Shown here piece after piece: positions 29,471-43,008 of a stretch of DNA of 64,000 bases (its first letter is position 1; each line of letters opens with the position of its first letter). The DNA is from a virus. Lineage: Duplodnaviria; Heunggongvirae; Uroviricota; Caudoviricetes; Crassvirales. The notes beneath the pieces were generated by a model, which saw only the letters and a program-made list of their open reading frames with translations, was not told the DNA's origin and searched no databases. Made by a program: the position numbers and the translations under genes. The stretch covers positions 38,195 through 102,194 of IMG/VR virus record IMGVR_UViG_3300040771_000130; one strand, 5' to 3'.

Positions 29471-31501
29471 TTAATTAAGTTTATCAATAATACTATAGCA
29501 TTCTTTAATATAGTAGTCATAATTTAAATCATATTCATGTTCTTTATACTTATTAAATAATGTACATTTATAACCAGATTCTAAATTTTCATCTCTATTT
29601 TCAGCATCAACTTTAACATCTTCAATAACATCAAATATATTCATTTGATTTGAATCAAATTTTAATTTGTATTTATCAGTTTCAGTTAAATGATGTTTTT
29701 CAAGAGGTGGTAATTTCTTGATTAATTCTACACCTGTATTAGATACATAATATCTATTCATTTTAGACAACGGTTCTTCAATTAATTCGTGACCTTTCCA
29801 ATAGCGTTGAACTAATGTGTTTTGACCTTTCATTTTAGCACCCAAACAGAAGTCGTAAATACCATAATTTTCACATATAAGATTGTTCATTTTATTTGTG
29901 TAATGATTTCTACCATTATTACTTAAATGGTTTTTAACGGTAAATTCTGGTTTATTACCATTTATAAAGTATTCAGCTAATGCAATTGGAACAATTCTTT
30001 TAGAATGGTTTTTATGATAATCTCTATCGATTTCAAAACAACCTTTAAATTTAATATTATCATCAGAAATAATATTAATATAATTATTAACATCTCTGGC
30101 TATAATTTTTTTACAAACTTGAATTTCTAATGGTATATTAACTATTTTTTCAACTTGTTTACAAGCTTTAGATAAATTATCATAATCAGATCTATGAATT
30201 TTATACATCGCACCATCAGTGTTTTCAAAAATAATAGTTGGTTCTATTTTACAAGATTCAAATACTTTTTCTGTTAACAATGTCAGCATTAATTGACCGT
30301 TAATACAAATAGCTAATTGCCATTTAGGATCATATAAAAATGCATATTTATCTTTAGATAAACCATAACTACCGTTAAGAATAATTTTTAATACATAATT
30401 ACGAGGATCTTTTTTATCATAAAGTTTTCTATCTTTATAAAAACCTTCATAAATTCTACTAAAAATTGGTTCTGGAATATGTTCTGGATGTAATTTATTT
30501 CTAAATGAAATGTGAGGATAATATGATGCAAAATCTACATCTACTAATATATAATCATCATCTGATTCATATATACCAGCTTTACCAAATGAATGTAATC
30601 CACCTTCAGCGTATTCTCTAACAACATTTTTATAATTTTTACTAAAAGATATAGAATACTTTTTAGCTTCCTCTTTAGACATATTAGAAGTATCAATCCA
30701 AGTGTAAGATTTAAATTTATTTAAAATTTCTTGATTTAATGGATCTTCAAATCTCAAATAATCAAATATTATGTTTTTAATATTTACTTGAGATCTTTCA
30801 GTTCTTAATTTAGATAAAGTTTTAACATCTATATTCATTTCTTTAGATAAATATTTACCAAAGATTTCTTTAGACATTCTAATTTCAGAAGCGTTAATTA
30901 AATTCATACCTTCTAATTGAGTATAGAACTTTCTAATATCAATATGTTTAGAACTTATATTATAAAATTTTTCAGTAGCTTCAATATCGTTTTTACAATA
31001 ACTAATAATTTCATCCATTTGATCAAATGTTAAAATTGTACCAGGTTTGTATGGTAAATCTTCAACATTAGGTAATCTCATAGCAAATTCAAGCCATTTA
31101 AGCGATGTACTTTTATTTTTGTTATCATAGTGCCAAATACGATATAAATCCAATTGAGGTATCTTAATTTGATTATCCCATATTGCAGAATATTTAGTAT
31201 TAATAATAATTTCAACTTCTTTATAAATTTCTTGAGCAGTTAAAAGTTTATTTGATTTTAATATAGTATTATGTAATACTGGATAATCAAAATTAAGATT
31301 GTTAAATCCTATTAAACCTTTAACTTGCTCATTAAGAAATTTTTTTAAATCAATTTGATCTGTTTTTCTATCACTTATTTCAAAGTAATGATATCTTTCT
31401 GTAACAATACATTTGAATACTGCTAAAAAGAAATTAGGATAGGTTTCTAAATCAAATATAAATAATTTTTTTTCCATATATAAAGTATTAGTGAGACACA
31501 C
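29471..31501 (-). CDS. DNA polymerase, family B, with 3'-5' exonuclease domain
   Basis: Exo I 'FDLETY', Exo 'YCKNDI' (YxxxD), Pol motif A 'DFASYYPHI' (DxxSLYPS), motif B 'KIILNGSYG' (KxxxNSxYG) and motif C-like 'ENTDGAMY'. Confidence 0.75.
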   Translation of the reverse strand: MCLTNTLYMEKKLFIFDLETYPNFFLAVFKCIVTERYHYFEISDRKTDQIDLKKFLNEQVKGLIGFNNLNFDYPVLHNTILKSNKLLTAQEIYKEVEIIINTKYSAIWDNQIKIPQLDLYRIWHYDNKNKSTSLKWLEFAMRLPNVEDLPYKPGTILTFDQMDEIISYCKNDIEATEKFYNISSKHIDIRKFYTQLEGMNLINASEIRMSKEIFGKYLSKEMNIDVKTLSKLRTERSQVNIKNIIFDYLRFEDPLNQEILNKFKSYTWIDTSNMSKEEAKKYSISFSKNYKNVVREYAEGGLHSFGKAGIYESDDDYILVDVDFASYYPHISFRNKLHPEHIPEPIFSRIYEGFYKDRKLYDKKDPRNYVLKIILNGSYGLSKDKYAFLYDPKWQLAICINGQLMLTLLTEKVFESCKIEPTIIFENTDGAMYKIHRSDYDNLSKACKQVEKIVNIPLEIQVCKKIIARDVNNYINIISDDNIKFKGCFEIDRDYHKNHSKRIVPIALAEYFINGNKPEFTVKNHLSNNGRNHYTNKMNNLICENYGIYDFCLGAKMKGQNTLVQRYWKGHELIEEPLSKMNRYYVSNTGVELIKKLPPLEKHHLTETDKYKLKFDSNQMNIFDVIEDVKVDAENRDENLESGYKCTLFNKYKEHEYDLNYDYYIKECYSIIDKLN

Positions 31502-31592: not shown

Positions 31593-32405
31593 TTATTGTT
31601 GTTTTAACAGAGTAACTGGTGTGTTACCATATAACGGTGTTTTACCATCCCATTTTTCAATAAACTGTTCCTGAAGCAATTGTGATGTAATACCTGAACT
31701 TCTAATTTTGTTTTGTTCAGCTTTTAACAATTCTAGTTCATTACGTTTACGTTGTTCAATAATTTGTTGATCTAATACAGAAACATTAGTGTTTACTTCA
31801 TTTCTACTATCAATCTTAGCTTTAACTTTCTTAGAAAAGTCTAAATTTAAACTAAAACTAATAAGATTTAATCCTGATTTTTCAAGTTCTTTTTTAACTA
31901 TTGTTTGAACATATTGTTCAAATTTAAGAGAACCACCATTAGACATTAATGAATCTGTAGTATATGCTTTTGACGCTTCTTTAATTATATCATAAATTCT
32001 TGGTTCAATTACATTATCTTCTAATGCTAACATAAATGAATTACCTGAACCTAATCTCGCATTTTGAAATACAACATCTACAACTCTATCAGATATTACT
32101 TTATAAGAATATACTGGTTTAGAAGTAAATGCAGTATTATCTGCAGCTTTAATATTTAAAGTCTTTTCTGAATCATCATCATTAGTAAATTTACCACGTT
32201 GTTCCCATGCTGGAACTTGGAATAATTCTGATCCTGGTGAAAATACAGTACTTACTCTACCTTTTACCTCAGAATAATCTGATTTACCAGATTTACCATA
32301 ATTTTCCATTAGTACGCCATAATAATTTGGAGCAACTCTTTCACAAGATGTTAACATTATTACAGCTAATAACAACATTCCTGAAATTTTCAAAATTTTT
32401 TTCAT
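31593..32405 (-). CDS. lipoprotein, possibly SPFH/band-7-like
   Basis: Signal peptide with lipobox 'MLTSC' and a C-terminal Gln/Glu-rich coiled coil. The central region loosely resembles SPFH domains (weak). Confidence 0.4.
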   Translation of the reverse strand: MKKILKISGMLLLAVIMLTSCERVAPNYYGVLMENYGKSGKSDYSEVKGRVSTVFSPGSELFQVPAWEQRGKFTNDDDSEKTLNIKAADNTAFTSKPVYSYKVISDRVVDVVFQNARLGSGNSFMLALEDNVIEPRIYDIIKEASKAYTTDSLMSNGGSLKFEQYVQTIVKKELEKSGLNLISFSLNLDFSKKVKAKIDSRNEVNTNVSVLDQQIIEQRKRNELELLKAEQNKIRSSGITSQLLQEQFIEKWDGKTPLYGNTPVTLLKQQ

Positions 32406-32572
32406 TTAATTAATTTTTAATTTGTTTAATAATTATTTTTATTGAGATATAAATCATTAATAATACGCAAACTATCCCAATCCACGCATTGATATGGTTA
32501 AATAACCATATTCCTGTGTAAAATCCCATTAATAATAATGTGATTTTTAAAATCCATTTTTTCATATAATAT

Positions 32573-32980
32573 TTAACTGTTTGCTATTTCATTTAATTGA
32601 TCTGGCGAATATAAAGATATACCTTTAATTCCACCACAACCATTACCAGGAAAGGGTGTAAATAAAGTAGTTGTTTTAACAATTTGAAAACAATGTAGAG
32701 AATGAAAAGTATATTCTTTATTGTCTTCATCTTTTATAATTTTTGTGTTGTATAAAGATTTGATCAATTTTTTAATACTTAAACTAGGATAATACGTTTG
32801 TAAAATTTCTAATATTTCATCAATTGATCTATATTTACCTTTTTTACATTGAACAACAGTACATTCTTTATCAGAATAAGTTTCAACAGAAGTAAGATAG
32901 CTACCATTATGGTAAGAATAAAGTAAAGTTATAAATTCTTTTACACTTCTAGATCTTTTAAAATTTACATATATCGCCAT
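32573..32980 (-). CDS. hypothetical protein, 'MAIYV' family paralog B
   Basis: 135 aa; shares N-terminus and motif pattern with 24750..25178. Confidence 0.5.
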   Translation of the reverse strand: MAIYVNFKRSRSVKEFITLLYSYHNGSYLTSVETYSDKECTVVQCKKGKYRSIDEILEILQTYYPSLSIKKLIKSLYNTKIIKDEDNKEYTFHSLHCFQIVKTTTLFTPFPGNGCGGIKGISLYSPDQLNEIANS

Positions 32981-33792
32981 TATTTTAATTTTTGTTTTAC
33001 TAATTCTTGAATTCTACGATTTTGTGCAGAAAATGATGTTGTATCTGTAATAGGTTTATCAGCAGATATATAAATATTAGCAACATCTTTCAATGATAAG
33101 CAAGGTTTATTCATAAAAATATATTTTTCAGCTTTTTCTTTTGATTTATAAAAAATATAATCACTTTTTTGAGATGTTGAACAAATTGTAGGTGAAGATA
33201 ATTTTACATCTTTTAAATTTTTTAAATCTATATAATAGACATCTTCATCATTTTCAAAAATATCAACACCATCTTCAGTTGTGAATAATGGTTGAATTAA
33301 TTTTAAACATTGATCTAATTCATTACTCCATATATTTTTAGAATTTTCTAAATAAATTATATTATTAATTAATTTAATTTCTAATAACATATTAATAGGA
33401 TATGTTGAACTTTTACATTTTTTATTAAAATTAACTTTATCACCAATAGTAAATATTTCACCATCGCTTAGACGTTTGACTGAATAAATATTATAGTAAT
33501 TAGGTATTAGATTATTACCAACTGTAATTTGTGATGAAGCAGAGTTATATGTTCCGTTATTAGTTATATTGTAAATATTTGAAGTTTCTTTACCTTGATA
33601 TGATAATATTTCATAATCTTTTTCAACAACAAGTTGCCAAAATTCTGGATGATTTTCTGGTTGAATCCAATTAGAATTTACATAATAACCATTATCAAGC
33701 TGCGGAGCTATAATATGTCCTAGTTTATGACTTCCTGGATAAGTTTTTATAAGTTTGTATTTCATAATACTTAGTTTACAATTGTTGCCCAT
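32980..33792 (-). CDS. hypothetical protein
   Basis: 270-aa ORF, ATGA-coupled. Confidence 0.5.
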   Translation of the reverse strand: MGNNCKLSIMKYKLIKTYPGSHKLGHIIAPQLDNGYYVNSNWIQPENHPEFWQLVVEKDYEILSYQGKETSNIYNITNNGTYNSASSQITVGNNLIPNYYNIYSVKRLSDGEIFTIGDKVNFNKKCKSSTYPINMLLEIKLINNIIYLENSKNIWSNELDQCLKLIQPLFTTEDGVDIFENDEDVYYIDLKNLKDVKLSSPTICSTSQKSDYIFYKSKEKAEKYIFMNKPCLSLKDVANIYISADKPITDTTSFSAQNRRIQELVKQKLK

Positions 33793-35186
33793 TTGTCTTG
33801 TCTTTCACAATATATAGAATAAGCACCAGCATCAGCATAGATATTTACAGTAGTATCGCTATTTGAAGTTTCATAAAAATCAGTTGTTTTTATAATACTT
33901 GATCTACCCAACAAACTTCTAATTTTAGTCCCAACAGGATACAATCTTTTAGCTTTTTCTAATAATGTTTCTTCTTTAACTTCAATAGTTTTATTTAAAA
34001 CATATTTTTTAAATTGCTCTAAAGTTATTTCTGTGTAACCTATTTTAATTTCAGGATATGTTGTACAATCATGAAAACTTGGAAAATGTGCATAATTAAC
34101 AGATAATTCTATTTTACTATAAGAATTAACACTGTGTGTATTACAATAATCTACAAATAAATCATCATCTGATTTTAAACACCACTTTTCATGTAATACA
34201 AAATCAATTTTAGGTTCAATATAATGTTCAATACTGTTAATGTCAAACTTAGAAGTTTCATTTAATATTGCAATTATTTGAGTTCTATTTTCATTATATT
34301 CAAATTTTGTAATATCATAAATTACATTTGATAGTGATTTAACTTTATCACCAATAAAGAATTGACTACCTTCATTATTCTCAACTTTAGTAATAGTTTC
34401 AATTGTTTCAATTACTTTAAATTGTGGTAATGGTTCGATAGTTTCTTTAATAACAGTTTCTTTTAAAACATATTGTTTAAATTGTTCAAATGTAATTTCA
34501 GTAAAAACAAAATTTGAAGAAATGTTATGATTGTTATAAGACAGTTTTCTACTTTCAGTCATATTCCACGACCAATTTTTAAAGTCATCAAAATCATTTT
34601 TATTATGATTAAGATAATAAATATATTGATTAATTAAAAATCCTGCACCTATTTTAGGTAATTTATTTATTAATTCTAAACAATTGCCGTCAGTTATTTT
34701 TATACACCATTTCTCAGGTAATACAAATTCAGGATCTTTAGTTATAAATTGAGCATCATAAGCTTCTTTTGTTGATGATTTAAATCGATCTTGTAGATTT
34801 TTATAAGTAATAAGGGTTTTGTGCCAACTTAAATTAAATAATTCATTTGCTTCATTATGGTTTGAAGTTTTATAAATTGTATTTACTTTTGCTAAACCAT
34901 ATTCTGCAATACATTCAACATATTCAGGAATAAATGTTTTCATAGCTTTATTATATTTTATGAATTTATCTTGTTCAATACACAGATTTAACCAATGTTT
35001 TTCTTCAGGTGTTGCATTTCTTATAACACTATAATTGTTTTGAACAGGTGTTTTAGAGAAATGTTTACCATCCATTGAAATCCAAAATTTAATATACAAT
35101 TTTTCATTTCTTATTTTATTTATAAAATTGTCACCAAAAACATAAATTTCATTTTCAATTAAATCTTCTTTTTTTATAGTTTTCAT
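33771..35186 (-). CDS. hypothetical protein with internal tandem domain duplication
   Basis: 471 aa. 'FVLPEKWCIKITDGN...FTEITFEQFKQYVLKETVIKE' is repeated as 'FVLHEKWCLKSDDD...YTEITLEQFKKYVLNKTIEVKE' about 185 aa later. Confidence 0.5.
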   Translation of the reverse strand: MKTIKKEDLIENEIYVFGDNFINKIRNEKLYIKFWISMDGKHFSKTPVQNNYSVIRNATPEEKHWLNLCIEQDKFIKYNKAMKTFIPEYVECIAEYGLAKVNTIYKTSNHNEANELFNLSWHKTLITYKNLQDRFKSSTKEAYDAQFITKDPEFVLPEKWCIKITDGNCLELINKLPKIGAGFLINQYIYYLNHNKNDFDDFKNWSWNMTESRKLSYNNHNISSNFVFTEITFEQFKQYVLKETVIKETIEPLPQFKVIETIETITKVENNEGSQFFIGDKVKSLSNVIYDITKFEYNENRTQIIAILNETSKFDINSIEHYIEPKIDFVLHEKWCLKSDDDLFVDYCNTHSVNSYSKIELSVNYAHFPSFHDCTTYPEIKIGYTEITLEQFKKYVLNKTIEVKEETLLEKAKRLYPVGTKIRSLLGRSSIIKTTDFYETSNSDTTVNIYADAGAYSIYCERQDKWATIVN

Positions 35187-35387
35187 AATATTTGTTAATT
35201 AGTTATTATTTGTTATTTTATTATTCATAATATTTATTAATTGATTAAAATAAAATGTGAGTTTATCAGCCGCTGCTCCACCGTTACAATTCCTCTAGGA
35301 CTATTTAAAGTATTCAAATTGCACTGAGATGACTCACATTTTAAAAAACTAACTAAAAAAAACTAAACATTATGAAAATTTAGTTTG

Positions 35388-35446
35388 TGGAGGATTGGGG
35401 ATTCGAACCCCTGTTTTCAAATCTGTTACCTAACAGACTATCCTCC
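35388..35446 (-). tRNA. tRNA-like minihelix element lacking an anticodon arm (~58 nt)
   Basis: Minus strand has acceptor GGAGGAT/ATCCTCC, a canonical D-arm TCTG-TTAGGTAA-CAGA and a T-arm GGGG-TTCGAAT-CCCC. Only 10 nt (TTTGAAAACA) separate the D- and T-arms. Confidence 0.4.
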
Positions 35447-35462
35447 ATTTATTTTTAATTAA

Positions 35463-35690
35463 TTACAACCATTTAGGTGGTTTTTCTGGTAATGCTGGAC
35501 ATTTATGTATTAATAACATTATCCATATTACGATTGATAACGGTGTAAAAAAACTAAAAAATAAGTTTACTCGTACATCCTCCCATTCCCAAGTATTATC
35601 TTTGTTATATTTTACAACAATATATTTGTTAATATAATAACAAATTATTACGATTGCTAAATATATTAGTATTCCAATTAATGTTTCCAT
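35463..35690 (-). CDS. small membrane protein (2 TM)
   Basis: 75 aa with two hydrophobic helices. Confidence 0.45.
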   Translation of the reverse strand: METLIGILIYLAIVIICYYINKYIVVKYNKDNTWEWEDVRVNLFFSFFTPLSIVIWIMLLIHKCPALPEKPPKWL

Positions 35691-35700
35691 AATAATGTTT

Positions 35701-35898
35701 TTAAAAAATTAATTCTGATTTTATTAAACAATTAAATCCAATTATTAAAAGTATTGCAATAATTAATACTGTTGTAAGCATTGTTACTGTTTCATAGTAA
35801 TTGTTTTTAATAATTTTTCTATAAATTATTATACTTACAATAGGTGTAAGTATAGCTAAAAATATCAATAATGATCCTGCAAATAAATAAGTTTCCAT
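35701..35898 (-). CDS. small membrane protein (2 TM; holin-like topology)
   Basis: 65 aa with two hydrophobic helices and a charged C-terminus. Confidence 0.4.
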   Translation of the reverse strand: METYLFAGSLLIFLAILTPIVSIIIYRKIIKNNYYETVTMLTTVLIIAILLIIGFNCLIKSELIF

Positions 35899-35905
35899 AA
35901 TTATA

Positions 35906-36577
35906 TTATTTAAGTTGAATAGCTAGTTTAGCAATTGTTTTTAATGCGCCGAATTCTGGATTTATAAAGCCAGTTAACATATCTGGAAAGTAATAAATAC
36001 TTCCTATTGATAATAATACACAAACTGTTAAATGAAACCCTTTAAACCAACTATTGTTTTGATTTTCAATAGGTATTAAAATATCTTCTTTTCCAATAGG
36101 ACCATCAATGTATCTTTTTGATCTAATATCATTCTGATAACCATTTCTACCTTCATAATAGCTATCAAATTGAGCATTTGGTATTTTATCAATAATATCT
36201 TTTTCACCTTTAACAAAATTTTTTTCTGTTAATTTAACATTTAAATTACGTTTATAAAATAAACACCAATTAAACATAGAAGATAATGTTAATATTAGAA
36301 ATCCAATAGACCATACTAATTGTTGTTTTACTAATATGTTCCAAACATTATTAGTGGTTGTCTTAAACGATTCGGCTAATGAACTAATAGCTTTCTCAAC
36401 TTTAGGAGATAAAGCTTTAGCGTCATTATAAACTGTTTTAGTAAGTAATTTACCATCATTGTAAACAGTAGATACTCCTTCTTCAGAATTATCTAATATT
36501 TTATCAACTTGTTTTGATTGTGCAAAAGTCAGAGTCATTGACATGATTGCTACGAATAATAAGAATTTTGTTTTCAT
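35906..36577 (-). CDS. secreted/membrane-anchored protein
   Basis: N-terminal signal peptide 'MKTKFLLFVAIMSMTLTFAQS' plus internal and C-terminal hydrophobic segments. Confidence 0.5.
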   Translation of the reverse strand: MKTKFLLFVAIMSMTLTFAQSKQVDKILDNSEEGVSTVYNDGKLLTKTVYNDAKALSPKVEKAISSLAESFKTTTNNVWNILVKQQLVWSIGFLILTLSSMFNWCLFYKRNLNVKLTEKNFVKGEKDIIDKIPNAQFDSYYEGRNGYQNDIRSKRYIDGPIGKEDILIPIENQNNSWFKGFHLTVCVLLSIGSIYYFPDMLTGFINPEFGALKTIAKLAIQLK

Positions 36578-36691
36578 TTTTAATTATTTTTAGTTATTTT
36601 TTAAAGAGTTGTTTAAATCTATTCTGTTCCAAAGATGTGTTAATATAATTTGACCATTAGGAAATTGTAAACTATACATTGTTTTCATAAT

Positions 36692-36943
36692 TTATAGATT
36701 AAATTGGGGAATATCAGGCTGGTTTTCAGACCAAATCTTAATAATAGAATTTCTAAATTTGGTTATTTTATTTAATTCAGATTCTGAAACACCATTATCT
36801 AAATATACATATGTTATCATATTATTAAAACTTTTAATATAAAATAAATATGAATAATCATCACCTGAAACTCCTAATTCAATTTCTGTAATTTTACAAA
36901 TATTTTTAGTATCTATAATATCACCATTTATTGCTATTTTCAT
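36692..36943 (-). CDS. hypothetical protein
   Basis: 83-aa ORF. Confidence 0.45.
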   Translation of the reverse strand: MKIAINGDIIDTKNICKITEIELGVSGDDYSYLFYIKSFNNMITYVYLDNGVSESELNKITKFRNSIIKIWSENQPDIPQFNL

Positions 36944-36945
36944 AA

Positions 36946-37155
36946 TTAATTCATATTAAAACCACTTTTTTTATTCCATTTGTACAATAATGTATTCTGA
37001 ACACGTTTAGGATAATAACAACCAGTTATTAACCATTTAATTGGTCTGTAAATTACTAATACAAACACAATAGTTGGTATTAATAATATTACAGATAATT
37101 TCCATAAAAATTTAATCATTTCCTTGAATTTTAATATCATAAGTAACCAGTTCAA
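36946..37155 (-). CDS. small membrane protein
   Basis: 69 aa; central TM 'VILLIPTIVFVLVIY'. Confidence 0.4.
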   Translation of the reverse strand: MNWLLMILKFKEMIKFLWKLSVILLIPTIVFVLVIYRPIKWLITGCYYPKRVQNTLLYKWNKKSGFNMN

Positions 37156-37272
37156 TTTTTATAATTTTACTACAATCTGGTTTATTTAATAATTTTTCAC
37201 ATTCAGAAATTGATTCTGCTACAACAAAATCAATATTATTATTTTGTCTTTGATATCTATACAAATTCATAA

Positions 37273-37539
37273 TTATGTTTTTAAATTATTTAATATTTTC
37301 ATACCAATATGTTGTGGTTGTTGTAAAACAACAGTTGGTTTAGTTTTATTTTTATTACAAATATATTTAATATATATCATTTCTAAATAATTTTTGTAAG
37401 GTTTTGATAAATTCTTTAGTTTATTAATTCTATTAAATTCATCTTGATGTACCTGTAACATCTTTGGTTGTTCATTGTTGATATCTTGTATCATTTGAAA
37501 TGAACTCGGAATAAGATATCCTATTGTATTTGTTGTCAT
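37273..37539 (-). CDS. hypothetical protein
   Basis: 88-aa ORF. Confidence 0.45.
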   Translation of the reverse strand: MTTNTIGYLIPSSFQMIQDINNEQPKMLQVHQDEFNRINKLKNLSKPYKNYLEMIYIKYICNKNKTKPTVVLQQPQHIGMKILNNLKT

Positions 37540-37568
37540 AATTTGTTAGTTTTAGTTTGTTTTTATTT

Positions 37569-37799
37569 AATTAAATCACCTAAGTAGTGGCGTTAATATA
37601 TTTTATTATTTCTTAATTTTGTATCTAGTTACATTACTGTCGTGTCCATATAATAATATAATAAAGATTAACTTCTACAAATTTTGTTATTATAATGATA
37701 TTAAAGAACTACATTATTACTTATAAATAAGCTTCTTGAACTGTCTGTTTAATTAGAATAACTCATTCCTAGCCATTTTAAGGATTAGGTGATTTAATT
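37569..37799. repeat. 16-bp perfect inverted repeats (AATTAAATCACCTAA / TTAGGTGATTTAATT) bracketing a ~200-bp AT-rich ORF-free spacer
   Basis: Left arm 37569..37583 and right arm 37785..37799 are exact reverse complements. Everything between the two flanking minus-strand genes lies inside the repeats. Confidence 0.6.
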
Positions 37800-37810
37800 T
37801 AGTTTATTAT

Positions 37811-38122
37811 TTATTCACAAAGTTTGATATATTTTTCAATTTTGTTTTTTGAATTTGATAATTTTCCAAACATAATTCCAGAATTACCATTAACTAAACC
37901 TTTAACTGTTAAAGCGTCATCTTTTAATGTATCTTTAACTTTGGTAATATAATTTGATACAGCAGTATCTTTATTACTTTTACTTAACTCTAATAATTGA
38001 TTATATCTCTTAATATGTATAATTTCAAGTTTTAGAATAGCTTCAAGAGAGTCATCTTTAGAATCAATTCCATCACAAGATATTGACAATAATATTACTG
38101 ATAACAACAATAACTTTTTCAT
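37811..38122 (-). CDS. small lipoprotein
   Basis: Signal peptide with lipobox 'LSISC' then a 'DGIDSKDD' linker. Confidence 0.5.
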   Translation of the reverse strand: MKKLLLLSVILLSISCDGIDSKDDSLEAILKLEIIHIKRYNQLLELSKSNKDTAVSNYITKVKDTLKDDALTVKGLVNGNSGIMFGKLSNSKNKIEKYIKLCE

Positions 38123-38123
38123 A

Positions 38124-38513
38124 TTATGTTAATTGAACATTAGCAATATTCATTCTAACTCTTTTGTTTTTTGACAAAGCATCCACAAATTGTTTTTGGA
38201 AATCAAATAAAGATTTATTAAACCCATCTAAATTAGATTTTTTAAACTCTTTGTAATCTCTTTTAGCAATTTTCTTTTCATTTTTAGTAAAATGAATTTC
38301 TTTTTCAACAATTATAGTTTCATCTGTATCAGAATCAACGGTGTAAGATATTGCACATTTATCCCAAGCAGTTTCTTGAAATATTTTGTGTAATTGTGAT
38401 TCATTTCTTCTACGACCTTTAATGTCAAAGAAAGCATCTTTTGTAATTGGTTGAGCAACTTTAGTACCGTTTTGTAATGTGTAAGTAACTGTTGTAAATT
38501 TTTCTGTGTTCAT
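38124..38513 (-). CDS. hypothetical protein
   Basis: 129-aa ORF, 1-nt spacing to the upstream gene. Confidence 0.5.
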   Translation of the reverse strand: MNTEKFTTVTYTLQNGTKVAQPITKDAFFDIKGRRRNESQLHKIFQETAWDKCAISYTVDSDTDETIIVEKEIHFTKNEKKIAKRDYKEFKKSNLDGFNKSLFDFQKQFVDALSKNKRVRMNIANVQLT

Positions 38514-38536
38514 AATGTTAAATTTTAATTAGTTAT

Positions 38537-38722
38537 TTAAATATTTGTTATTTTATTATAAATTGTTAATGTAGTTTCAATACAATCTACATGCGATTTG
38601 TTTTTTAATTCTATTGTACACTTTTTAAATGATAAATTTTCTGGCTTAATACTAGATATTTCATCAATGTTAATAATTGCATCACCATTAGGTGTTTTTA
38701 TTAATATTATATTTATCATAAT
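38537..38722 (-). CDS. small hypothetical protein (start moved to internal Met)
   Basis: The track ORF (38537..38800) would begin inside a terminator hairpin; the internal ATG at 38722 (MINIILIKTPNG...) is the more plausible start. Confidence 0.35.
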   Translation of the reverse strand: MMINIILIKTPNGDAIINIDEISSIKPENLSFKKCTIELKNKSHVDCIETTLTIYNKITNI

Positions 38723-38757
38723 GTTAATATTTAATTGTTTTAATTTGTTTTTAATAA

Positions 38758-38795
38758 AAACCACTAATACTAGACATATATTAGTGGTTTGTTTT
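38758..38795 (-). terminator. intrinsic terminator hairpin (strand-symmetric)
   Basis: CCACTAATA-(9 nt)-TATTAGTGG, a 9-bp perfect stem, flanked by T-runs on both strands. Confidence 0.5.
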
Positions 38796-38861
38796 TTCAC
38801 ACAACGAAGACTTATTATAGTGTGACTTTCTGCTAGGGTTTTTACCCACGTCCGTAGTTTA

Positions 38862-39000
38862 TTTTTTAATTGTATAATTTAATGTAATATAACATACTAA
38901 TCATTATACTCAATGTTAATAAAACAGTTGTTATAAATATATAATTAGGATGTTTTATTTCTGAATTTGAAATTATAAATTTTTCTATTTTATTTCTCAT
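38862..39000 (-). CDS. small membrane protein (46 aa)
   Basis: Minus-strand frame MRNKIEKFIISNSEIKHPNYIFITTVLLTLSIMISMLYYIKLYN starts 2 nt after the stop of 39003..39668 and ends before the terminator. Confidence 0.25.
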
Positions 39001-39002
39001 AA

Positions 39003-39668
39003 TTATAAATTTTTTTCAATCCATTTATTAAGACTTTTATCGTCAATTTTATTTATTGTATTGTCTGGATATTTTGTAACATAAATATCATAATTTTGAG
39101 CATATATTGATGCTTTTATTAAATTAATAACTTCTTCACGATTCCAACTATCTTTTAATTTCTTAATTGTAATAGTATTGTCTTTAGGATTTATTTTTAA
39201 TCTATTTAATATTTCAGGTTTAATCATCATAGGATTACCATAAAGATTTCCTTTAGTATAATTTTTATACTCGATTAATACATTAGCAATAACTTCACCT
39301 TTATTATAAGATTCAATATATTTTTCAATAAATTGTTGTGATGGTTGAGGAAATGCCGCAAATGTACCAATACCAACAACTTTTTTTAATGAAGTATCTG
39401 TTGTAGCTATGATTTTTTTATCTGTACTTTTATACAATTCTAAATTACCATCAGATATAAATAATATATTATGAACAGTATCTAAACACCAATCACCTTT
39501 TTTTATTTCATTATCTGAAATAATATACAAATGATGATTTGTAAACATTGATAATGTATCATGTTTATTACTGTTACATACTAAATTATTAGTTTTTTTT
39601 GACAAACTAATGTTAGATAATACATTTGTTGGTAACATTATTACCTGAGCTCTTTTAAACTGTTCCAT
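39003..39668 (-). CDS. hypothetical protein
   Basis: 221-aa ORF. Confidence 0.5.
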   Translation of the reverse strand: MEQFKRAQVIMLPTNVLSNISLSKKTNNLVCNSNKHDTLSMFTNHHLYIISDNEIKKGDWCLDTVHNILFISDGNLELYKSTDKKIIATTDTSLKKVVGIGTFAAFPQPSQQFIEKYIESYNKGEVIANVLIEYKNYTKGNLYGNPMMIKPEILNRLKINPKDNTITIKKLKDSWNREEVINLIKASIYAQNYDIYVTKYPDNTINKIDDKSLNKWIEKNL

Positions 39669-39927
39669 GACATTTGTTTTTAAGATTATACCATTTTTTA
39701 AATTCTTGAAAATTACAAGATATTAACCAACCATTATAAATAAATGGTTTATTATTACCCTTATAGTTTCTACTGTTTTCTTTTGAAAAATCTTTTAACC
39801 AATTCATATCTTTAGCAAAATCTAAAAATAATATGTTTAAATCTTTTTCTTTACTATATTGATAGTTTTGTTTATCTAGCCAATTTTTAACACCAACATA
39901 ACTTCTAAGTTTATCTACAACATTCAT
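39655..39927 (-). CDS. hypothetical protein
   Basis: 90-aa ORF overlapping the downstream gene by 14 nt. Confidence 0.45.
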   Translation of the reverse strand: MNVVDKLRSYVGVKNWLDKQNYQYSKEKDLNILFLDFAKDMNWLKDFSKENSRNYKGNNKPFIYNGWLISCNFQEFKKWYNLKNKCHGTV

Positions 39928-40365
39928 TTAATTAAGATTAAATTCATAACCAATCATAGCACTATTCGTACTATCATAAGAAAATACAAAGTTTCTATAT
40001 TGTATTTGAGCACCAACAGATCTGTAAATATTCTGAGCTTCTTTAACATTGTTAATGTTTTGGTCAAAATATGTAGCACCTAATTTACCTGTAACAGTAA
40101 AATCATCAATTGTAGCACCTATTAATAAAAATAATGATGGTGATACTTTTGTATTAGCTGTGTGAACTGTAAATGGTTTTGGGTCCATTCTAGTAGCTCT
40201 ATCAGCTATTTCTTTAGAATCTGTAATTGATGTAGCTACACCAAAATTAAAATTACCTTTTGTTTTGAAATTTAATTCAAATGATTTATAACCTACTAAT
40301 GTGGTTATACTTTGTTGACTAAATCCTATTATAGGAAATAGTAATAATATTAATAACTTTTTCAT
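39928..40365 (-). CDS. small outer-membrane beta-barrel protein (OmpX/Lom-like size class)
   Basis: Signal peptide 'MKKLLILLLFPIIGFSQQ' (Bacteroidetes style). The mature ~125 aa part has alternating hydrophobic/aromatic beta-strand periodicity and a terminal 'YEFNLN'. Confidence 0.45.
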   Translation of the reverse strand: MKKLLILLLFPIIGFSQQSITTLVGYKSFELNFKTKGNFNFGVATSITDSKEIADRATRMDPKPFTVHTANTKVSPSLFLLIGATIDDFTVTGKLGATYFDQNINNVKEAQNIYRSVGAQIQYRNFVFSYDSTNSAMIGYEFNLN

Positions 40366-40935
40366 AATTAGTTTGTTTTAGTTTTGTTTTGTTTTATACC
40401 CTCTGTATTCAGTCGTAAAAATAGTAATCATATAGTATAAGCTTATTGTTTAATGGAATTTAATCCAGCTATTTCAGAGATTGTAAATTGTATGGTACAT
40501 ACTAGCATCTCTACATCTATTTTTACAACTGCTAACCCTTGGGAAGTTAGAATGATACATTATTATGCTAGTTACACAACCATATCTAGCAGACATCATT
40601 TACGTTGAACCATGTTTTAACATTGTGTTTATACTCAAAGGGCTGATGACTATATTTTAAAAAATCACTTGTCCATATCTAGTGGAATATTATTAGATAG
40701 TTAAAAACTCATCTAGGCTAATGTTAAGATTTAATACCGTCTAACGGAACATTAGTTATTTACGTTTTGCTAAATCAATATCTTTACATATTAAACACAA
40801 CTGCTAGTACAGTTTAATAATCTATAAATACATTTTCAACATCAACATTGTTTATTAACAAAGTGTACTACAGTATTTATTTAAAGGAATATAGATTATT
40901 GTTTATTTTCAAGCAAGCGATCTTAATTATTTAAT

Positions 40936-41406
40936 TTAACGTTTAGACGATTTGTTAGGACGTGATGAACTATTTGAATAAGAGTTTCTATTATTACGAC
41001 TTGTAAAATAATTATTTCTTGAAGGTTTTTTATTAGTATTATTATAAGAATTTCTATTTTGATTAGAATTTTTATTAATACTATTTCTTTTAGCAATTTG
41101 ATAACGTCTTACTTGTTCTTGACGTTGACGTTTTAAATACTTTTGTCGTTTAATGTAATCATATTTTTTGTTAAGATATTGATTACGTTGTGTAACAGAC
41201 ATTGTTTGACCGTTTCTATTGTAATAGTTATGGTTAGTTGAATTGTAATAACCACCACCATTATCTATATATGGTTGATTATCATTCCAATCATTACTAT
41301 ATTGAGAATATGGAATTTGTTGATTAATTGGTTGTGTACGATTTGTACATGAAGCAATTGAGGCAATTGCAAATGCTAAAAGTATTACTCTTGATTTTGA
41401 TTTCAT
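40936..41406 (-). CDS. low-complexity N/Y/R/S-rich lipoprotein
   Basis: Lipobox 'IASC' after the signal peptide; the mature part is dominated by N, Y, R, S, Q repeats. Confidence 0.45.
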   Translation of the reverse strand: MKSKSRVILLAFAIASIASCTNRTQPINQQIPYSQYSNDWNDNQPYIDNGGGYYNSTNHNYYNRNGQTMSVTQRNQYLNKKYDYIKRQKYLKRQRQEQVRRYQIAKRNSINKNSNQNRNSYNNTNKKPSRNNYFTSRNNRNSYSNSSSRPNKSSKR

Positions 41407-41422
41407 AACAATTTAATTTTGG

Positions 41423-41557
41423 TTATTTATTGGTTTTTCTGTTTTTGACATTACTTAGATCTTTACCAGTTTTATTGTAATAAATTCTTTTTTCTATTAA
41501 AGAACCTATTATAATACCTATTAACAAAGTAAAGAACGATGTTATTATTGTTTCCAT
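41423..41557 (-). CDS. small membrane peptide (44 aa)
   Basis: Frame METIITSFFTLLIGIIIGSLIEKRIYYNKTGKDLSNVKNRKTNK, a single TM with a basic tail, directly downstream of 40936..41406's upstream region. Confidence 0.25.
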   Translation of the reverse strand: METIITSFFTLLIGIIIGSLIEKRIYYNKTGKDLSNVKNRKTNK

Positions 41558-41567
41558 AATATATAAT

Positions 41568-41747
41568 TTATTCAAATAATATTACAGTAATAACATATAT
41601 TACAAATAATACATAACCATATGCTACGGCAATACCTGATTTGCCACTACTGTTTGGAGTTTTTACAATCCAATTGTGAAATGTGTGACTAATAATTAAT
41701 GTGAATAATAGTATTGTTAACACTATTGATGTGATTGAAATTGTCAT
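41568..41747 (-). CDS. small membrane protein (59 aa)
   Basis: Frame MTISITSIVLTILLFTLIISHTFHNWIVKTPNSSGKSGIAVAYGYVLFVIYVITVILFE with two TM segments; just under the track cutoff. Confidence 0.3.
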   Translation of the reverse strand: MTISITSIVLTILLFTLIISHTFHNWIVKTPNSSGKSGIAVAYGYVLFVIYVITVILFE

Positions 41748-42591
41748 AATGTAAATTGTTTAGTTAATTAGTTAATATTTTGTAATAAATTGTGTGTGAT
41801 AGTATGTAGAATAACTTAATTTAATTAGTTATAATATGTTTGTAAACGCTATAGATTTTATAACGGAATGAATATTTGTGTGTGTGAGTTTAGTGTAATA
41901 TGATGGGATTATTAATTAGTAAGTATTCACCATCTCAACAAATACGCCACTTCACAAAGGTTTTAATAAAATAATAGTAGTTAACTGTCTTACGCATCTA
42001 GACGATTTCCTTACGAATAAAGAATATGTGGATTTGAACCACTATTTTTTAACTACTATCATAATTAAATATTTACTCACTAAATATTAGCACCCTCTTT
42101 CTCATACAAACTTCTCTGCCGCAGCTTTACATTTAAGTTAGATTGGTTAAACAAGAGTAGGGTCACGTAGTTAACCTCATTCGAAATAATCCTGACGAAC
42201 TAAATCAACATAATCTACTTGCTGAGGACTCATTTGTGTTGGATAGAATGAATTTTCCTTAGACTACCTCTTATTTCAAGTATTACTTTCTCAAGGTAAC
42301 AACACATCTACCATTACTGATAGTATCTTTATGATGTGATTTAACGTGTATCATTCATCAATGGATCAATGTTTAGCCAATTTAATTGTAATTAAAGTTT
42401 TAACAGTAAACATGTTTCTTAAACACATATCAATCGTTATTCGATACTTATTTATTTACTATTATTAAACTTTTAATTAAAACTTATTATAACTAATTAT
42501 ATGATTTACTCTAATCGTAGATTATTTCAAAGATTTAAACAATCAAACGCCACAATGGCTAATTAATCATTACACATAATTAGTTATTCTA

Positions 42592-42624
42592 AGTCAAAAA
42601 AATATAAGGACTCCGAAGAGTCCC
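42592..42624 (-). terminator. strong intrinsic terminator (minus strand)
   Basis: GGACTC-TTCG-GAGTCC, a 6-bp GC-rich stem with a tetraloop, is followed on the minus strand by a U-rich tract (UUAUAUUUUUUU), immediately 3' of the 42631 stop. Confidence 0.7.
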
Positions 42625-42630
42625 TATAGA

Positions 42631-43008
42631 TTACGGTTGTGCATTAACAGTCACATCATCGAATACAAGACCAAAGTCTTCTTCAGTAGCGTTGTTACCA
42701 CCTGCAACAAGGTGAGATGTTCTGATGTACATTTTACCGTCATCACCTTTAGATACGGTAGATAGGAATTCTTCACCAACTTGCATACCGTGATTAAACG
42801 ATTTAGCAAAGATTTGTGTAGTAATACCTTTTTTCAATTCACCATTAGCATTGATGAAATCAATAGTACCTAAGTAATAAGTATTCTCCATACCTGATGC
42901 ATTGGTATAAGTTTGTGGAGATGTAGTATTAATAGCTACTAATTTAGCTGGAAAATTGTACTCAGTTTTACCTGTAACAGGATTTACGATTGCTTTGAAA
43001 TTTGACAT
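42631..43008 (-). CDS. hypothetical protein; first gene of the leftward (early) arm
   Basis: 125-aa ORF with GC content visibly above the genome background (non-AT codons such as ACC, GGT, GAC), sitting between the divergent promoter region and a strong terminator. Confidence 0.6.
   Translation of the reverse strand: MSNFKAIVNPVTGKTEYNFPAKLVAINTTSPQTYTNASGMENTYYLGTIDFINANGELKKGITTQIFAKSFNHGMQVGEEFLSTVSKGDDGKMYIRTSHLVAGGNNATEEDFGLVFDDVTVNAQP

Follow-up and report, generated by a model that had tools for sequence, protein, structure and literature searches.

Introduction

Phage T5 produces an early lipoprotein, Llp, that blocks the FhuA receptor (PMC9586334). Llp and Cor of phi80/N15 exemplify the small lipoprotein of a lytic phage that is sent to the outer membrane soon after infection and guards against superinfection and loss of progeny on debris. 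T4 Imm and Sp, small proteins made early and placed in the inner membrane, prevent the entry of DNA or the action of lysozyme, and P22 SieA is a further small inner-membrane protein (PMC10883804). Phage lambda carries as accessory genes both Lom, an outer-membrane barrel of ~150 aa among the Ail/Lom/OmpX eight-stranded barrels (PF06316), and Bor, a small lipoprotein, each expressed from the prophage. In Cellulophaga phage phi14:2 the entire rightward arm constitutes the early class and is transcribed by the virion RNA polymerase gp66 (bioRxiv 10.1101/2020.03.07.982082). Near the start of this arm, g001 has a signal peptide and g002 is a 331-aa OmpA-like barrel with a peptidoglycan-binding (OmpA_C) domain and a lipobox. 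SPFH proteins are known scaffolds of membrane microdomains (PMC12005517); in bacterial HflK/HflC and QmcA/YbbJ-type SPFH-NfeD operons the SPFH gene adjoins a gene for a small membrane partner.

The locus considered here lies in a 64,000-nucleotide stretch of DNA, hereafter the window, whose source is an uncultivated crAss-like phage related to phi14:2. The PolB proteins of the two share 63% identity, and gene order across the whole window is syntenic with phi14:2. A lytic lifestyle is a property of the phage group that contains the window. Positions 31593-41747 on the minus strand form the variable pre-polymerase stretch of the early arm, and the host probably belongs to the Bacteroidota.

Materials and Methods

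Leaders were judged from rule-based scans and from conservation in homologues, and transmembrane (TM) helices were called by Kyte-Doolittle (KD) windows of at least 1.6. The coding-frame test used a codon table trained outside 31593-41747.

Results and Discussion

All open reading frames named in an earlier note on this DNA are present on the minus strand, and JGI calls on the source contig give the same genes independently of the window ORF list (59, 44, 156, 145, 90, 221, 44, 75, 129, 103, 88, 52, 64, 83, 223, 65, 75, 471, 261, 135, 51 and 270 aa). The annotated frame was the best of six for 23 of 23 ORFs, comprising the 22 of the span and 42631-43008. The genes are real. A lipobox, signal peptide or TM helices were found in 12 of the 22 ORFs. 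Of the other 66 ORFs of the window, 3 have such a feature when credible cases are counted and 6 when every flagged one is (Fisher p 9.7e-7 to 2.6e-5). This enrichment is beyond chance, and the products of the 12 genes are very probably exported or membrane-inserted. Small hydrophobic proteins are commonly enriched among phage accessory genes, which does not imply one shared purpose. The remaining 10 ORFs, including the largest (471, 270 and 221 aa), do not encode membrane proteins, and four non-coding gaps of 270-880 nt punctuate the span.

Table 1. Features of the span 31593-41747. A slash marks the cleavage site of a leader.
Position	Strand	Feature	Basis or remark
31593..32405	-	SPFH/Band-7 lipoprotein, 270 aa, lipobox LTS/C21	Pfam PF01145, phrog_200
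32410..32565	-	two-TM hairpin peptide, 51 aa	KD windows; directly upstream of SPFH gene
32573..35186	-	three non-membrane early genes, 135, 270 and 471 aa	without TM or signal peptide
35463..35690	-	two-TM peptide, 75 aa	KD 2.26, 2.41
35701..35898	-	two-TM peptide, 65 aa	KD 2.55, 2.74; best coding frame of six
35906..36577	-	conserved membrane protein, 223 aa	signal peptide TFA/Q20, two TM
within 36692..39927	-	soluble early genes, 83, 52, 88, 129, 75/87, 221 and 90 aa	without TM or signal peptide
36946..37155	-	single-TM peptide, 64/69 aa (JGI: 64-aa form)	KD 2.56
37811..38122	-	helical lipoprotein, 103 aa, lipobox SIS/C16	16 homologues
38866..39000	-	peptide with C-terminal TM, 44 aa	KD 1.98
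39928..40365	-	predicted exported eight-stranded beta-barrel, outer-membrane type, 145 aa	AF2, family features
40393..40567	-	conserved non-coding three-way-junction RNA motif	covariation; upstream of barrel gene
40936..41406	-	lipoprotein, 156 aa, lipobox IAS/C20, low-complexity basic mature part	leader scan, composition
41423..41575	-	single-TM peptide, 44/50 aa	KD 2.32; best coding frame
41568..41747	-	two-TM peptide, 59 aa	KD 2.46, 2.53; best coding frame

The lipoboxes LTSC, SISC and IASC that had been proposed were located, each preceded by a K/R-rich n-region and a hydrophobic h-region. The claim of at least four signal-peptide proteins stands, the true count being five with the 223-aa protein that had been left out. 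Seven small ORFs pass the KD windows, matching the seven or more small one- or two-TM proteins that had been reported; the ORF placed at 38862..39000 exists, but with 38866 as its lower coordinate. The leaders are either Bacteroidota-style Sec/signal-peptidase-I leaders with Gln at +1 or signal-peptidase-II lipoboxes. Gln at +1 in the families of the 223-aa protein and the barrel agrees with the Q-rule of Bacteroidetes signal-peptidase-I leaders (PMC5837995). The canonical surface-export signal of the Bacteroidota, C-x-K-(D/E)2, occurs at the required position in none of the three lipoproteins.

The suggestion that the gene next to the polymerase encodes an SPFH protein was upheld by the Pfam match (E 2.7e-9, 37.7 bits against a cut-off of 23.6), and phrog_200 ('lipoprotein') was matched with E 1e-29. 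Searches with tblastn matched 386 phage records; among the matches listed, the Bacteroides/Phocaeicola phages LoVEphage, BI-TP1 and PV4-TP1 showed 56-60% identity. The lipobox cysteine is kept in homologues as FASC, FMSC, LVSC and TSSC. The 51-aa two-TM peptide is likely the partner of the SPFH lipoprotein. A small hydrophobic one- or two-TM protein followed by an SPFH lipoprotein also occurs in relatives L011 and L005 and as gp168-gp169 of phi17:2, an unrelated Cellulophaga myovirus which shares the pair with the window; the partners in L011 and phi17:2 are visibly homologous to one another. As in the bacterial SPFH systems, an oligomeric membrane scaffold is presumed. However, the phage protein is lipid-anchored through its lipobox whereas bacterial SPFH proteins are anchored by an N-terminal TM helix, and the 51-aa partner lacks the NfeD OB-fold domain of SPFH-NfeD operons (no PF01957 match).

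The 223-aa protein is the most conserved member of the exported set. It has 301 homologues, many of which derive from contigs of ~95-103 kb, and matches phrog_1486 ('membrane protein', E 1.8e-7); no match was found to an isolated phage. The signal-peptidase-I leader (MKTKFLLFVAIMSMTLTFA/QS) is followed by a helical part in the periplasm that includes a TVYND repeat, a TM helix at ~85-107, a variable basic loop, a second TM helix at ~183-203 and a C-terminal amphipathic helix. Residues W79, Q85, Q86, N103, W104, H182, C186, G203 and P207 are invariant in the family and Q20 is nearly so. The AF2 model (pLDDT 74) has no structural neighbors in the PDB. This is a lineage-wide inner-membrane protein.

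The 'FSQQ' signal that had been noted is present on the 145-aa protein as a signal-peptidase-I leader (MKKLLILLLFPIIGFS/QQ). The AF2 model (pLDDT 90, pTM 0.79) has eight strands, with two-residue turns at one side and long loops opposite, in keeping with the OmpX/Lom-size barrel that had been suspected. Every member of the family has a signal peptide, usually with an A/Q site, and all end in G-x-x-Phi-x-Phi. Conservation is higher on the G/S/T-rich face than on the hydrophobic face, and dN/dS is 0.16-0.36. The protein is confidently modeled as an eight-stranded barrel with outer-membrane hallmarks. Comparisons with the Ail/Lom, OmpA and OMP_b-brl families gave no Pfam, NCBIfam or PDB-sequence match, and the family is tiny, with 23 representatives among 1.84e9.

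The 103-aa lipoprotein retains its lipobox, together with S-C-D-G-x-D-x-K-D and a second cysteine, Cys102, in all 16 homologues. The mature part of the 156-aa lipoprotein, whose annotated frame is the best coding frame, is of low complexity and rich in N (21%), S (12%), R (11%) and Y (11%) as earlier described, with 10% Q and a pI of 10.5. Among the TM peptides, the 75-aa protein has an L011 orthologue (41% identity) and a weak match to phrog_3772 (E 1e-4). The 44-aa ORF with the C-terminal helix is intact in the close relative L004, where 38 of 44 residues are identical and the TM changes are conservative (dN/dS 0.50).

Soluble genes lie between these. The 135-, 270- and 471-aa genes are outside the exported set; they give a match to phrog_11079 (E 2e-38) and tblastn matches to phi14:2 g009, the homologue of the 270-aa protein, and g061. 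These genes contain internal repeats (D3 and D7), and the 471-aa protein has an internal duplication. The soluble genes within 36692..39927 have orthologues in L011, L012, L013 and phi14:2, including the 221-aa homologue of g004 (phrog_15656, E 1.5e-21). A relative, L003/L004, shows ~92% nucleotide identity to the window across shared segments and has an AAA+ ATPase gene in place of 40936-41747, which holds the 156-aa lipoprotein and TM peptides; it also lacks the 103-aa lipoprotein gene and 39003-39927. Homologue clusters number 19 for the barrel and 16 for the 103-aa lipoprotein, versus >300 for the 223-aa protein. As three pieces are swapped or lost in so close a relative, homologue counts are unequal, and genes for soluble proteins as well as non-coding RNAs lie in between, the span is not the module that the earlier note had proposed but a set of individually mobile accessory genes. 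The exported-protein cluster is real, but phage accessory regions of this type are well known.

That the span is expressed early can reasonably be proposed from its synteny with the early rightward arm of phi14:2, yet only 2 of its 22 genes have homologues by tblastn in the phage from which the timing is extrapolated. We lean towards a block of exchangeable small accessory genes, expressed early, more than half of whose products are sent to the envelope and act there or at the surface. Injected virion RNA polymerase would transcribe the span immediately after DNA entry, as in phi14:2, and the products would reach the periplasm and both membranes, inner and outer, by way of Sec, Lol and BAM of the host. 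In these compartments they may modify the surface and envelope of the infected cell, most probably by covering or obstructing receptors and the routes by which DNA enters, which would exclude superinfecting phages and keep progeny from adsorbing to debris. Stabilization or organization of the membrane by the SPFH protein would be among the likeliest roles. Each gene would work on its own and not as a component of a single machine. Superinfection exclusion or envelope remodeling is plausible by analogy with T5 Llp, T4 Imm/Sp and lambda Lom/Bor. The 103- and 156-aa lipoproteins resemble Llp and Cor in size and leader type, but show no sequence similarity to them (no PHROG match), and the span has three lipoproteins of different families. 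The seven TM peptides, and possibly the 223-aa protein, are analogous to Imm, Sp and SieA as small, early or accessory inner-membrane proteins with one or two TM helices, although no homology was detected and the hosts of T4 and P22 are Proteobacteria. The accessory barrel compares with Lom in size and strand number, and small lipoproteins accompany it as Bor does Lom in lambda, but it has no Ail/Lom family match, is confined to 23 representative clusters and lies in the early arm of a phage from a lytic group. No sequence similarity of span proteins to known exclusion proteins or defense systems was detected, and no defense families were found among the ORFs. The nearest real relatives of the envelope-gene theme are phi14:2 g001/g002, where g002 contrasts with the mini-barrel of the window, and phi17:2 gp168-gp171, where a two-TM peptide, an SPFH lipoprotein and an OmpA-like protein lie beside replication genes; homology to the window is limited to the SPFH and two-TM pair. 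The theme also recurs in relatives L011, L013 and L005, whose pre-PolB arms encode many TM peptides.

A possible but less probable account is that the genes have no common function and that the lineage piles up unrelated small accessory ORFs ('morons' or ORFans) at this site. Because short membrane proteins evolve easily and are readily tolerated, hydrophobic peptides would become over-represented, and each gene may have a distinct role such as transporter takeover, anti-defense or lysis timing. The mosaicism, uneven homologue counts and interspersed soluble genes and RNAs fit this account, as does the different membrane-gene repertoire of the pre-PolB arm in each relative. However, the common destination of at least five proteins lies past the inner membrane, a less trivial feature than TM peptides are, and the recurrence of an OmpA-like barrel, SPFH protein and lipoproteins in phi14:2 and phi17:2 suggests selection for envelope functions over random accumulation. 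It is very unlikely that the products instead form a membrane-bound platform on which phage replication or assembly takes place, with no action on the cell surface, in which the SPFH scaffold and 223-aa protein organize a microdomain beside the replication genes. The SPFH gene abuts PolB, and adjoins DNA-polymerase/exonuclease genes in phi17:2 and L011; scaffolding of membrane microdomains is the known role of SPFH proteins, and the conservation of the 223-aa protein resembles that of a core gene. But the lipid anchor would put the SPFH domain in the periplasm, apart from cytoplasmic replication, a platform on the cytoplasmic side could not make use of the barrel or of the two other lipoproteins, and neither the SPFH nor the 223-aa protein was found in phi14:2 (tblastn E <= 1e-4). 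Also very unlikely is a cassette for lysis or its control, of non-canonical type, in which TM peptides are holins or antiholins, lipoproteins and TM proteins are spanin-like, and a muralytic enzyme goes unrecognized among soluble proteins. HMM libraries often miss holins and spanins, which belong to the small TM proteins and lipoproteins, and several soluble proteins (135, 471 and 129 aa) lack annotation. Nevertheless, Pfam, PHROGs and NCBIfam gave no endolysin, holin or spanin family match for any ORF of the span, in line with the earlier view that this is not a simple lysis cassette, and lysis effectors are not expected at an early-transcribed position. Moreover, the phi14:2 endolysin g077, which coexists with g009 and g004, is encoded beside tail genes in the leftward middle/late arm, a place that by synteny corresponds to DNA past the right end of the window.

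The RNA motif that precedes the barrel gene is a separate element and not a protein gene. It has no Rfam match. In the core alignment 98.6% of cells are paired and 10 of 19 pairs show double changes, values that were reached in none of 500 shuffles. The same junction appears in the MFE folds of five of six compact copies, and pattern scans revealed 24 further loci.

Genomic context of the early arm

The window has a GC content of ~25% and its genes lie on the minus strand from 690 to 43008 and on the plus strand from 43565 onward, which places the divergence point of the two arms at ~43.0-43.5 kb. The family-B DNA polymerase (PolB) shares 63% identity with that of Cellulophaga phage phi14:2 (Crassvirales, Steigviridae), and tblastn comparison of all window ORFs with the complete phi14:2 genome revealed that both arms are collinear with it. 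The minus arm matches phi14:2 g113-g054, which specify replication and nucleotide metabolism, and the plus arm matches the GroEL, terminase, portal and major head protein genes and beyond. No near-identical DNA was found among isolated phages. The entire rightward arm of phi14:2 belongs to the early class, and its rifampicin-resistant transcription is carried out by gp66, the virion RNA polymerase that the phage injects (bioRxiv 10.1101/2020.03.07.982082). Because of this synteny and the class of the phi14:2 arm, the block at 31593-41747 corresponds to the pre-polymerase part of the early arm, equivalent to phi14:2 g001-g017. An early-class location is thereby given by synteny across both arms, with timing data that are those of phi14:2 alone. 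Just two of the 22 proteins in the block have homologues in phi14:2 (g009 and g004). The JGI gene calls, which were made independently on the 101,636-bp source metagenome contig, agree with the ORFs discussed here.

A single strong terminator was detected behind the first early gene; no other convincing terminator was found inside the block, and this scarcity is consistent with long early transcripts. A scan for sigma-70 promoters was uninformative, with 128 found compared to 111 expected in DNA of 25% GC. A search for flanking repeats as borders of a cassette yielded only A/C-rich 5′ leaders (repeats D1/D5). Copies of this leader (…AAAACAAACTAAAACTAAC/TAATT-ATG on the coding strand) are located 5′ of three coding regions and, 3′ of a long non-coding gap, touch the ATG both of the barrel gene and of the gene at 37273-37539. 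The leader may represent a Bacteroidota-type translation-initiation region that lacks a Shine-Dalgarno sequence, or a transcript start.

The block is enriched in exported and membrane proteins

Non-overlapping ORFs of at least 40 aa were scanned for Kyte-Doolittle hydropathy and for lipoboxes. Within the block 12 of 22 ORFs were flagged, comprising three lipoproteins (LTSC, SISC and IASC lipoboxes), two proteins with SPI-type leaders (145 and 223 aa) and seven peptides with one or two transmembrane (TM) segments. This compares with 6 of 66 ORFs outside the block, of which ~3 are credible, the doubtful flags falling on a helix inside ribonucleotide reductase, an amidotransferase whose start was probably misassigned and an ORF on the opposite strand (Fisher's exact p 2.6e-5 to 9.7e-7). 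The block of exported and membrane proteins proposed in the earlier note was confirmed accordingly; the signal-peptide proteins, put there at four or more, are present but had been undercounted by one, and the coordinates were right overall apart from 38862, which should read 38866. When a codon table derived from long genes outside the block was applied, the annotated frame was the best of the six for 23 of 23 ORFs. Moreover, the barrel gene displayed dN/dS values of 0.16-0.36 against three relatives, and a 44-aa TM ORF is uninterrupted in one close relative, where its substitutions are conservative.

Principal features of the window and their coordinates
Feature	Position	Strand	Remarks
Homing-endonuclease gene	6440-7159	minus	GIY-YIG/phrog_314-type
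NAMPT/NAPRTase-like and PRPP-synthetase-like genes	26773-29258	minus	JGI Pfam marks
PolB	29471-31501	minus	one ORF
SPFH lipoprotein	31593-32405	minus	
Homologue of phi14:2 g009	32980-33792	minus	
471-aa early protein	33771-35186	minus	internal tandem duplication
223-aa membrane protein	35906-36577	minus	
A/C-rich leader copies	37534-37570; 38722-38758; 40360-40396		D1/D5
103-aa lipoprotein	37811-38122	minus	
Homologue of phi14:2 g004	39003-39668	minus	
Mini β-barrel	39928-40365	minus	
RNA motif, three-way junction	40393-40567	minus	covariation, no Rfam match
156-aa lipoprotein	40936-41406	minus	
Non-coding gap, 883 nt	41748-42630	minus	especially 42085-42318
ARAGORN tRNA-Ser(UGA) prediction, 97 nt	42018-42114	minus	
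Terminator	42628-42603		behind first early gene
T5orf172-type gene	43565-44140	plus	
63-aa Acb2/Tad1 hairpin-domain protein	46023-46214	plus	PF24729
Homing-endonuclease gene	48051-48614	plus	GIY-YIG/phrog_314-type

Leaders were assessed by rule and by conservation among homologues. SPII lipoproteins were recognized by a K/R-containing n-region, a hydrophobic h-region and [LVI][ASTVI][GAS]C within ~25 residues, with a conserved cysteine, a pattern that is present in the LTSC21, SISC16 and IASC20 lipoboxes. The cysteine is retained in all five SPFH homologues that were inspected and does not vary among the 16 homologues of the 103-aa protein, which also share an invariant S-C-D-G-x-D-x-K-D motif and another invariant cysteine close to the C-terminus. 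The mature part of the 156-aa lipoprotein consists of 21% N, 12% S, 11% R, 11% Y and 10% Q with a pI of 10.5, and its coding score is best in the annotated frame. LES-dependent surface lipoproteins of Bacteroidota carry the signal C-x-K-(D/E)2-x or S-D-D-x-E directly behind the +1 cysteine, with positions +3 to +5 being critical (PMC5080379). The acidic stretch behind the cysteine of the 103-aa protein resembles this export signal, but the sequence is C-D-G-I-D-S-K-D-D and hence K-D-D occupies +7 to +9, not +3 to +5. The corresponding residues are C-E-R-V-A in the SPFH protein and C-T-N-R-T in the 156-aa protein, such that none of the three lipoproteins of the block has the signal at the required position. 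As K-D-D is out of position in one protein and the motif is not matched in the others, surface exposure of the lipoproteins is not claimed. The Q-rule of Bacteroidetes describes SPI leaders with small residues at -3/-1 and glutamine at +1 (PMC5837995); both the barrel and the 223-aa protein conform to it.

An orphan family of mini β-barrels

The suggestion that the 145-aa protein is an eight-stranded barrel was upheld by structure prediction. AlphaFold2 with an alignment of 20 sequences generated a model with eight long strands (pLDDT 90, pTM 0.79) in which turns of two residues (37-38, 87-88 and 124-125) are accompanied by long loops (50-73, which includes a helix, and 100-112). As modeled, this asymmetry would be that expected for an outer-membrane barrel with a periplasmic N-terminus. 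Every member of the family has a leader whose cleavage end is usually A|Q; the site is GFS|QQ in the barrel itself, and xAQ or AQA|Q in most homologues. The C-terminus is β-signal-like, with an invariant G139 followed by x-x-Phi-x-Phi in 21 sequences. I/F/V/L/Y/A account for 85% of one face of the strands, which is variable; G/S/T make up 50% of the opposite face, where a few charged residues are invariant. Conservation is higher on the small, polar face (entropy 0.47 compared to 0.87, p 0.003), a pattern that fits a polar lumen with a freely varying lipid-facing surface and is the opposite of that of a soluble barrel. The leader, eight strands, C-terminal signal and hydrophobic face together are the fold and targeting characteristics of a small outer-membrane β-barrel.

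Homologues of the barrel form 19 clusters with 58-94% identity, and a profile search of 1.84e9 representatives recovered just 23 proteins, with no link to cellular outer-membrane protein families. Membership of OmpX/Ail/Lom (PF06316), OmpA_membrane (PF01389) and OMP_b-brl (PF13505/PF13568) was rejected at the sequence level: a Pfam search returned nothing at E <= 1 beyond noise, NCBIfam gave no match, and the family profile did not match PDB sequences. In BFVD the barrel produced weak matches only, the best at E 2e-3; the proteins matched are barrel-like and come from Tenacibaculum, Cellulophaga and uncultured phages. Neither the barrel nor the 223-aa protein had a tblastn match among 50,697 phage records.

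The SPFH pair and a conserved 223-aa membrane protein

The SPFH fold that had been suspected for one of the lipoproteins was borne out by a match to Pfam SPFH/Band 7 PF01145 (37.7 bits, gathering threshold 23.6) covering profile positions 3-172 of 176, and by membership of phrog_200 (E 9.7e-30). Homologues were present in 386 phage records by tblastn, including many Staphylococcus phages, with identities of 56-60% in Bacteroides/Phocaeicola phages and 34% in the Cellulophaga myoviruses phi17:2 and phi4:1. SPFH ORFs of T4-like phages have been on record since 2006 (PMC1524935). A hydrophobic peptide of 51-59 aa with one or two TM segments is encoded directly upstream of the SPFH gene in the window, in two relatives (L005 and L011) and in phi17:2, and over the N-terminal half the L011 pair is nearly identical to the phi17:2 pair. 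The SPFH gene and the gene for this peptide therefore make up a pair that is passed among unrelated phages infecting Flavobacteriia. Identification of the partner as an NfeD protein was rejected as no match was obtained.

For the 223-aa protein 301 homologues were found, many of which lie on contigs of 95-103 kb, and orthologues in the relatives L011, L012 and L013 show 50-64% identity. Its leader (TFA|Q20) is followed by a glutamine that is nearly invariant across 41 aligned sequences. Two TVYND motifs are evident in the alignment and model, as are a conserved helix (LVKQQLVWSIxFLILT...NW), a variable basic loop that holds a β-hairpin, a second conserved helix (H182, C186, ... M-L-T-G-F-x-N-P-E) and an amphipathic tail. 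The fold has no neighbor in the PDB, and a match to TolQ (E 0.018) was dismissed as noise due to TM composition. Genes for two 2-TM peptides, one of which also is conserved in L011, flank the gene. The gene behaves as a core gene of the lineage.

The gene content of the early arm is mosaic

The proposal that the block is a module did not stand, as the gene set differs among relatives. In a relative that is ~92% identical in shared segments (L003/L004), a gene for a 275-aa AAA+ ATPase replaces 40936-41747, which specifies two TM peptides and the 156-aa lipoprotein, and both 39003-39927 and the gene for the 103-aa lipoprotein are lacking. The SPFH gene is directly upstream of the barrel gene in L005, and L011, L012 and L013 possess the 223-aa protein without the barrel. 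TM peptides, lipoproteins and signal-peptide proteins from other families abound in the pre-polymerase arms of phi14:2, L005, L011 and L013; among them are phi14:2 g001 and g002, the latter being OmpA-like and likewise equipped with a lipobox. The stable feature of the arm is a category, envelope-directed accessory genes, and not a gene set.

A three-way-junction RNA motif upstream of the barrel gene

In the 570-nt gap that precedes the barrel gene, one block shows stronger conservation than the adjacent coding DNA. The possibility that this 140-nt block is a small ORF was rejected since ORFs in the gap score poorly, and stable folding over the full 171 nt was rejected with a z-score of +0.67. 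The signal instead is that of a three-way junction, compact in form and carrying a variable insert. Pattern scans located the motif in four viral and 16 metagenome contigs in addition to L003, L005, L011 and L013, giving as loci the window, these four relatives and L016-L035. Stem P1 pairs UGUAU with AUACA, P2 is a 5-bp hairpin capped by the invariant loop UUCCCAAGG, and P3 is CAGUUGUAA/UUACAACUG around an insert of ~25-190 nt, with an invariant 3′ GAGGG. In a core alignment of 19 distinct copies from which the P3 interior was excised, 98.6% of cells are paired and changes on both sides occur in 10 of 19 pairs, including all five pairs of P2; the search pattern left stem positions unconstrained. 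None of 500 shuffles matched the observed values and slid registers paired just 27-45%. The G-U pairs point to the early-transcribed strand, and MFE folding of compact copies reproduced the junction in five of six cases. The gene downstream varies by locus, encoding the barrel, TM proteins or soluble proteins, and thus the motif is not a leader specific to exported proteins. The motif is absent from phi14:2, for which abundant early non-coding RNAs have been reported in the same neighborhood (bioRxiv 10.1101/2020.03.07.982082).

Further non-coding elements were noted after the first early gene. The 883-nt gap there has four conserved blocks (e.g., TAGATGTGTTGTYACCTTGAGAAAGT and TAACTACGTGACCCTACTCTT) in common with the phi14:2 g004-g005 intergenic region (3119-3361), from which an abundant early non-coding RNA has been reported (bioRxiv 10.1101/2020.03.07.982082). 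By sequence comparison, the two regions probably contain a homologous structured RNA. The tRNA-Ser(UGA) predicted by ARAGORN has a good T-arm (GGTTCAAATCC) and gave no match to the Rfam tRNA model even at E <= 1; it could represent a tRNA-like element that is degenerate or contains an intron. ARAGORN also called tmRNAs in phi14:2 (4031-4502, plus strand; tag GSSVQKLAMVA*) and L012 (8020-8392, plus strand), and none was found in the window. The phi14:2 candidate scored 46 bits against Rfam RF00023 (gathering threshold 47, E 2.6e-16), and the transcript of this site, at the g005-g006 junction, has been described as a long non-coding RNA (bioRxiv 10.1101/2020.03.07.982082).

Possible roles of the early envelope proteins

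The reading of the block in the earlier note is supported in part, as a set of exported proteins that would be expressed early and that is distinct from a lysis cassette; it is no proven module, and a role as an exclusion system is putative. A lysis cassette was rejected because searches of Pfam, PHROGs and NCBIfam with the ORFs of the block and 20 further window ORFs, in which an endolysin/spanin pair was sought, recovered no endolysin, holin or spanin family, and because the phi14:2 endolysin g077 is situated in the late arm among middle/late genes (69.8-70.4 kb). By synteny, a counterpart of g077 would lie beyond the right end of the window. No PHROG family annotated as a known exclusion protein (Llp, Cor, Imm, Sp, SieA or Ltp) was matched, and PADLOC-DB defense models gave no family at E <= 0.1 with the ten largest proteins. 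Overall, the structural and ecological description of the block is judged somewhat likelier to be correct than not. Within it, exclusion or receptor masking as the main selective function is a tentative proposal, drawn by analogy, to which we assign a distinctly minority chance. The chief competing explanation is that the genes have only their location and destination in common and serve no shared purpose; the exchange of gene sets between relatives speaks for it and the recurrence of envelope-directed categories against it, and it too is considered rather doubtful.

The leaders, folds, conservation, position and mosaicism of these genes are the observed part of the explanation. In the mechanism envisaged, the genes would be transcribed by the virion polymerase right after injection, and the products would be exported by Sec, processed by SPI with glutamine at +1 or by SPII, and sorted by Lol and BAM. 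As a speculative best guess, they might then alter receptors or entry routes, with the SPFH pair organizing or stabilizing the membrane; T5 Llp, T4 Imm/Sp and lambda Lom/Bor are analogues that alter receptors or entry routes in their own hosts. The fullest version of this idea, which we regard as improbable, is that a strictly lytic crAss-like phage installs, in the first minutes of infection, a previously undescribed composite superinfection-exclusion or receptor-masking layer in Bacteroidota that would comprise a mini barrel put into the outer membrane by BAM, lipoproteins of the periplasm or outer membrane, a lipid-anchored SPFH cage with its 2-TM partner and a conserved inner-membrane protein. 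If true, parts of such a layer would be traded between phages as an arms-race repertoire.

Crassvirales rank with the most abundant phages known and, to our knowledge, almost nothing is known of the roles of their early accessory genes. As a reservoir of proteins directed to the envelope, the pre-polymerase early arm provides candidates for the means by which these phages modify the host envelope and compete among themselves: the lineage-wide 223-aa membrane protein, the mobile SPFH and 2-TM pair, and the orphan family of mini outer-membrane-type barrels. As early or accessory membrane proteins and lipoproteins are a kind already familiar from T4, T5 and lambda, the value lies in these candidates and not in a new principle.

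Additional features of the window

Orthologues of the 471-aa early protein in L011 and L013 are 474-541 aa long, and the protein has no family assignment; the repeats in its gene (D3 and D7) are 468 and 525 nt apart with 82-85% identity. PolB is annotated in phi14:2 as joined from two pieces and is one ORF here. The two GIY-YIG/phrog_314-type homing-endonuclease genes and the T5orf172-type gene are scattered over both arms of the window. Just downstream of PolB, the NAMPT/NAPRTase-like and PRPP-synthetase-like genes are predicted to form an NAD+ salvage pair of the kind that phages use against NAD-depleting defenses. At the start of the plus arm, the 63-aa protein matches the Acb2/Tad1 hairpin domain with 45.3 bits (cut-off 27, E 1e-11) and may serve as a sponge that takes up cyclic-nucleotide immune signals, directed against CBASS or Thoeris.
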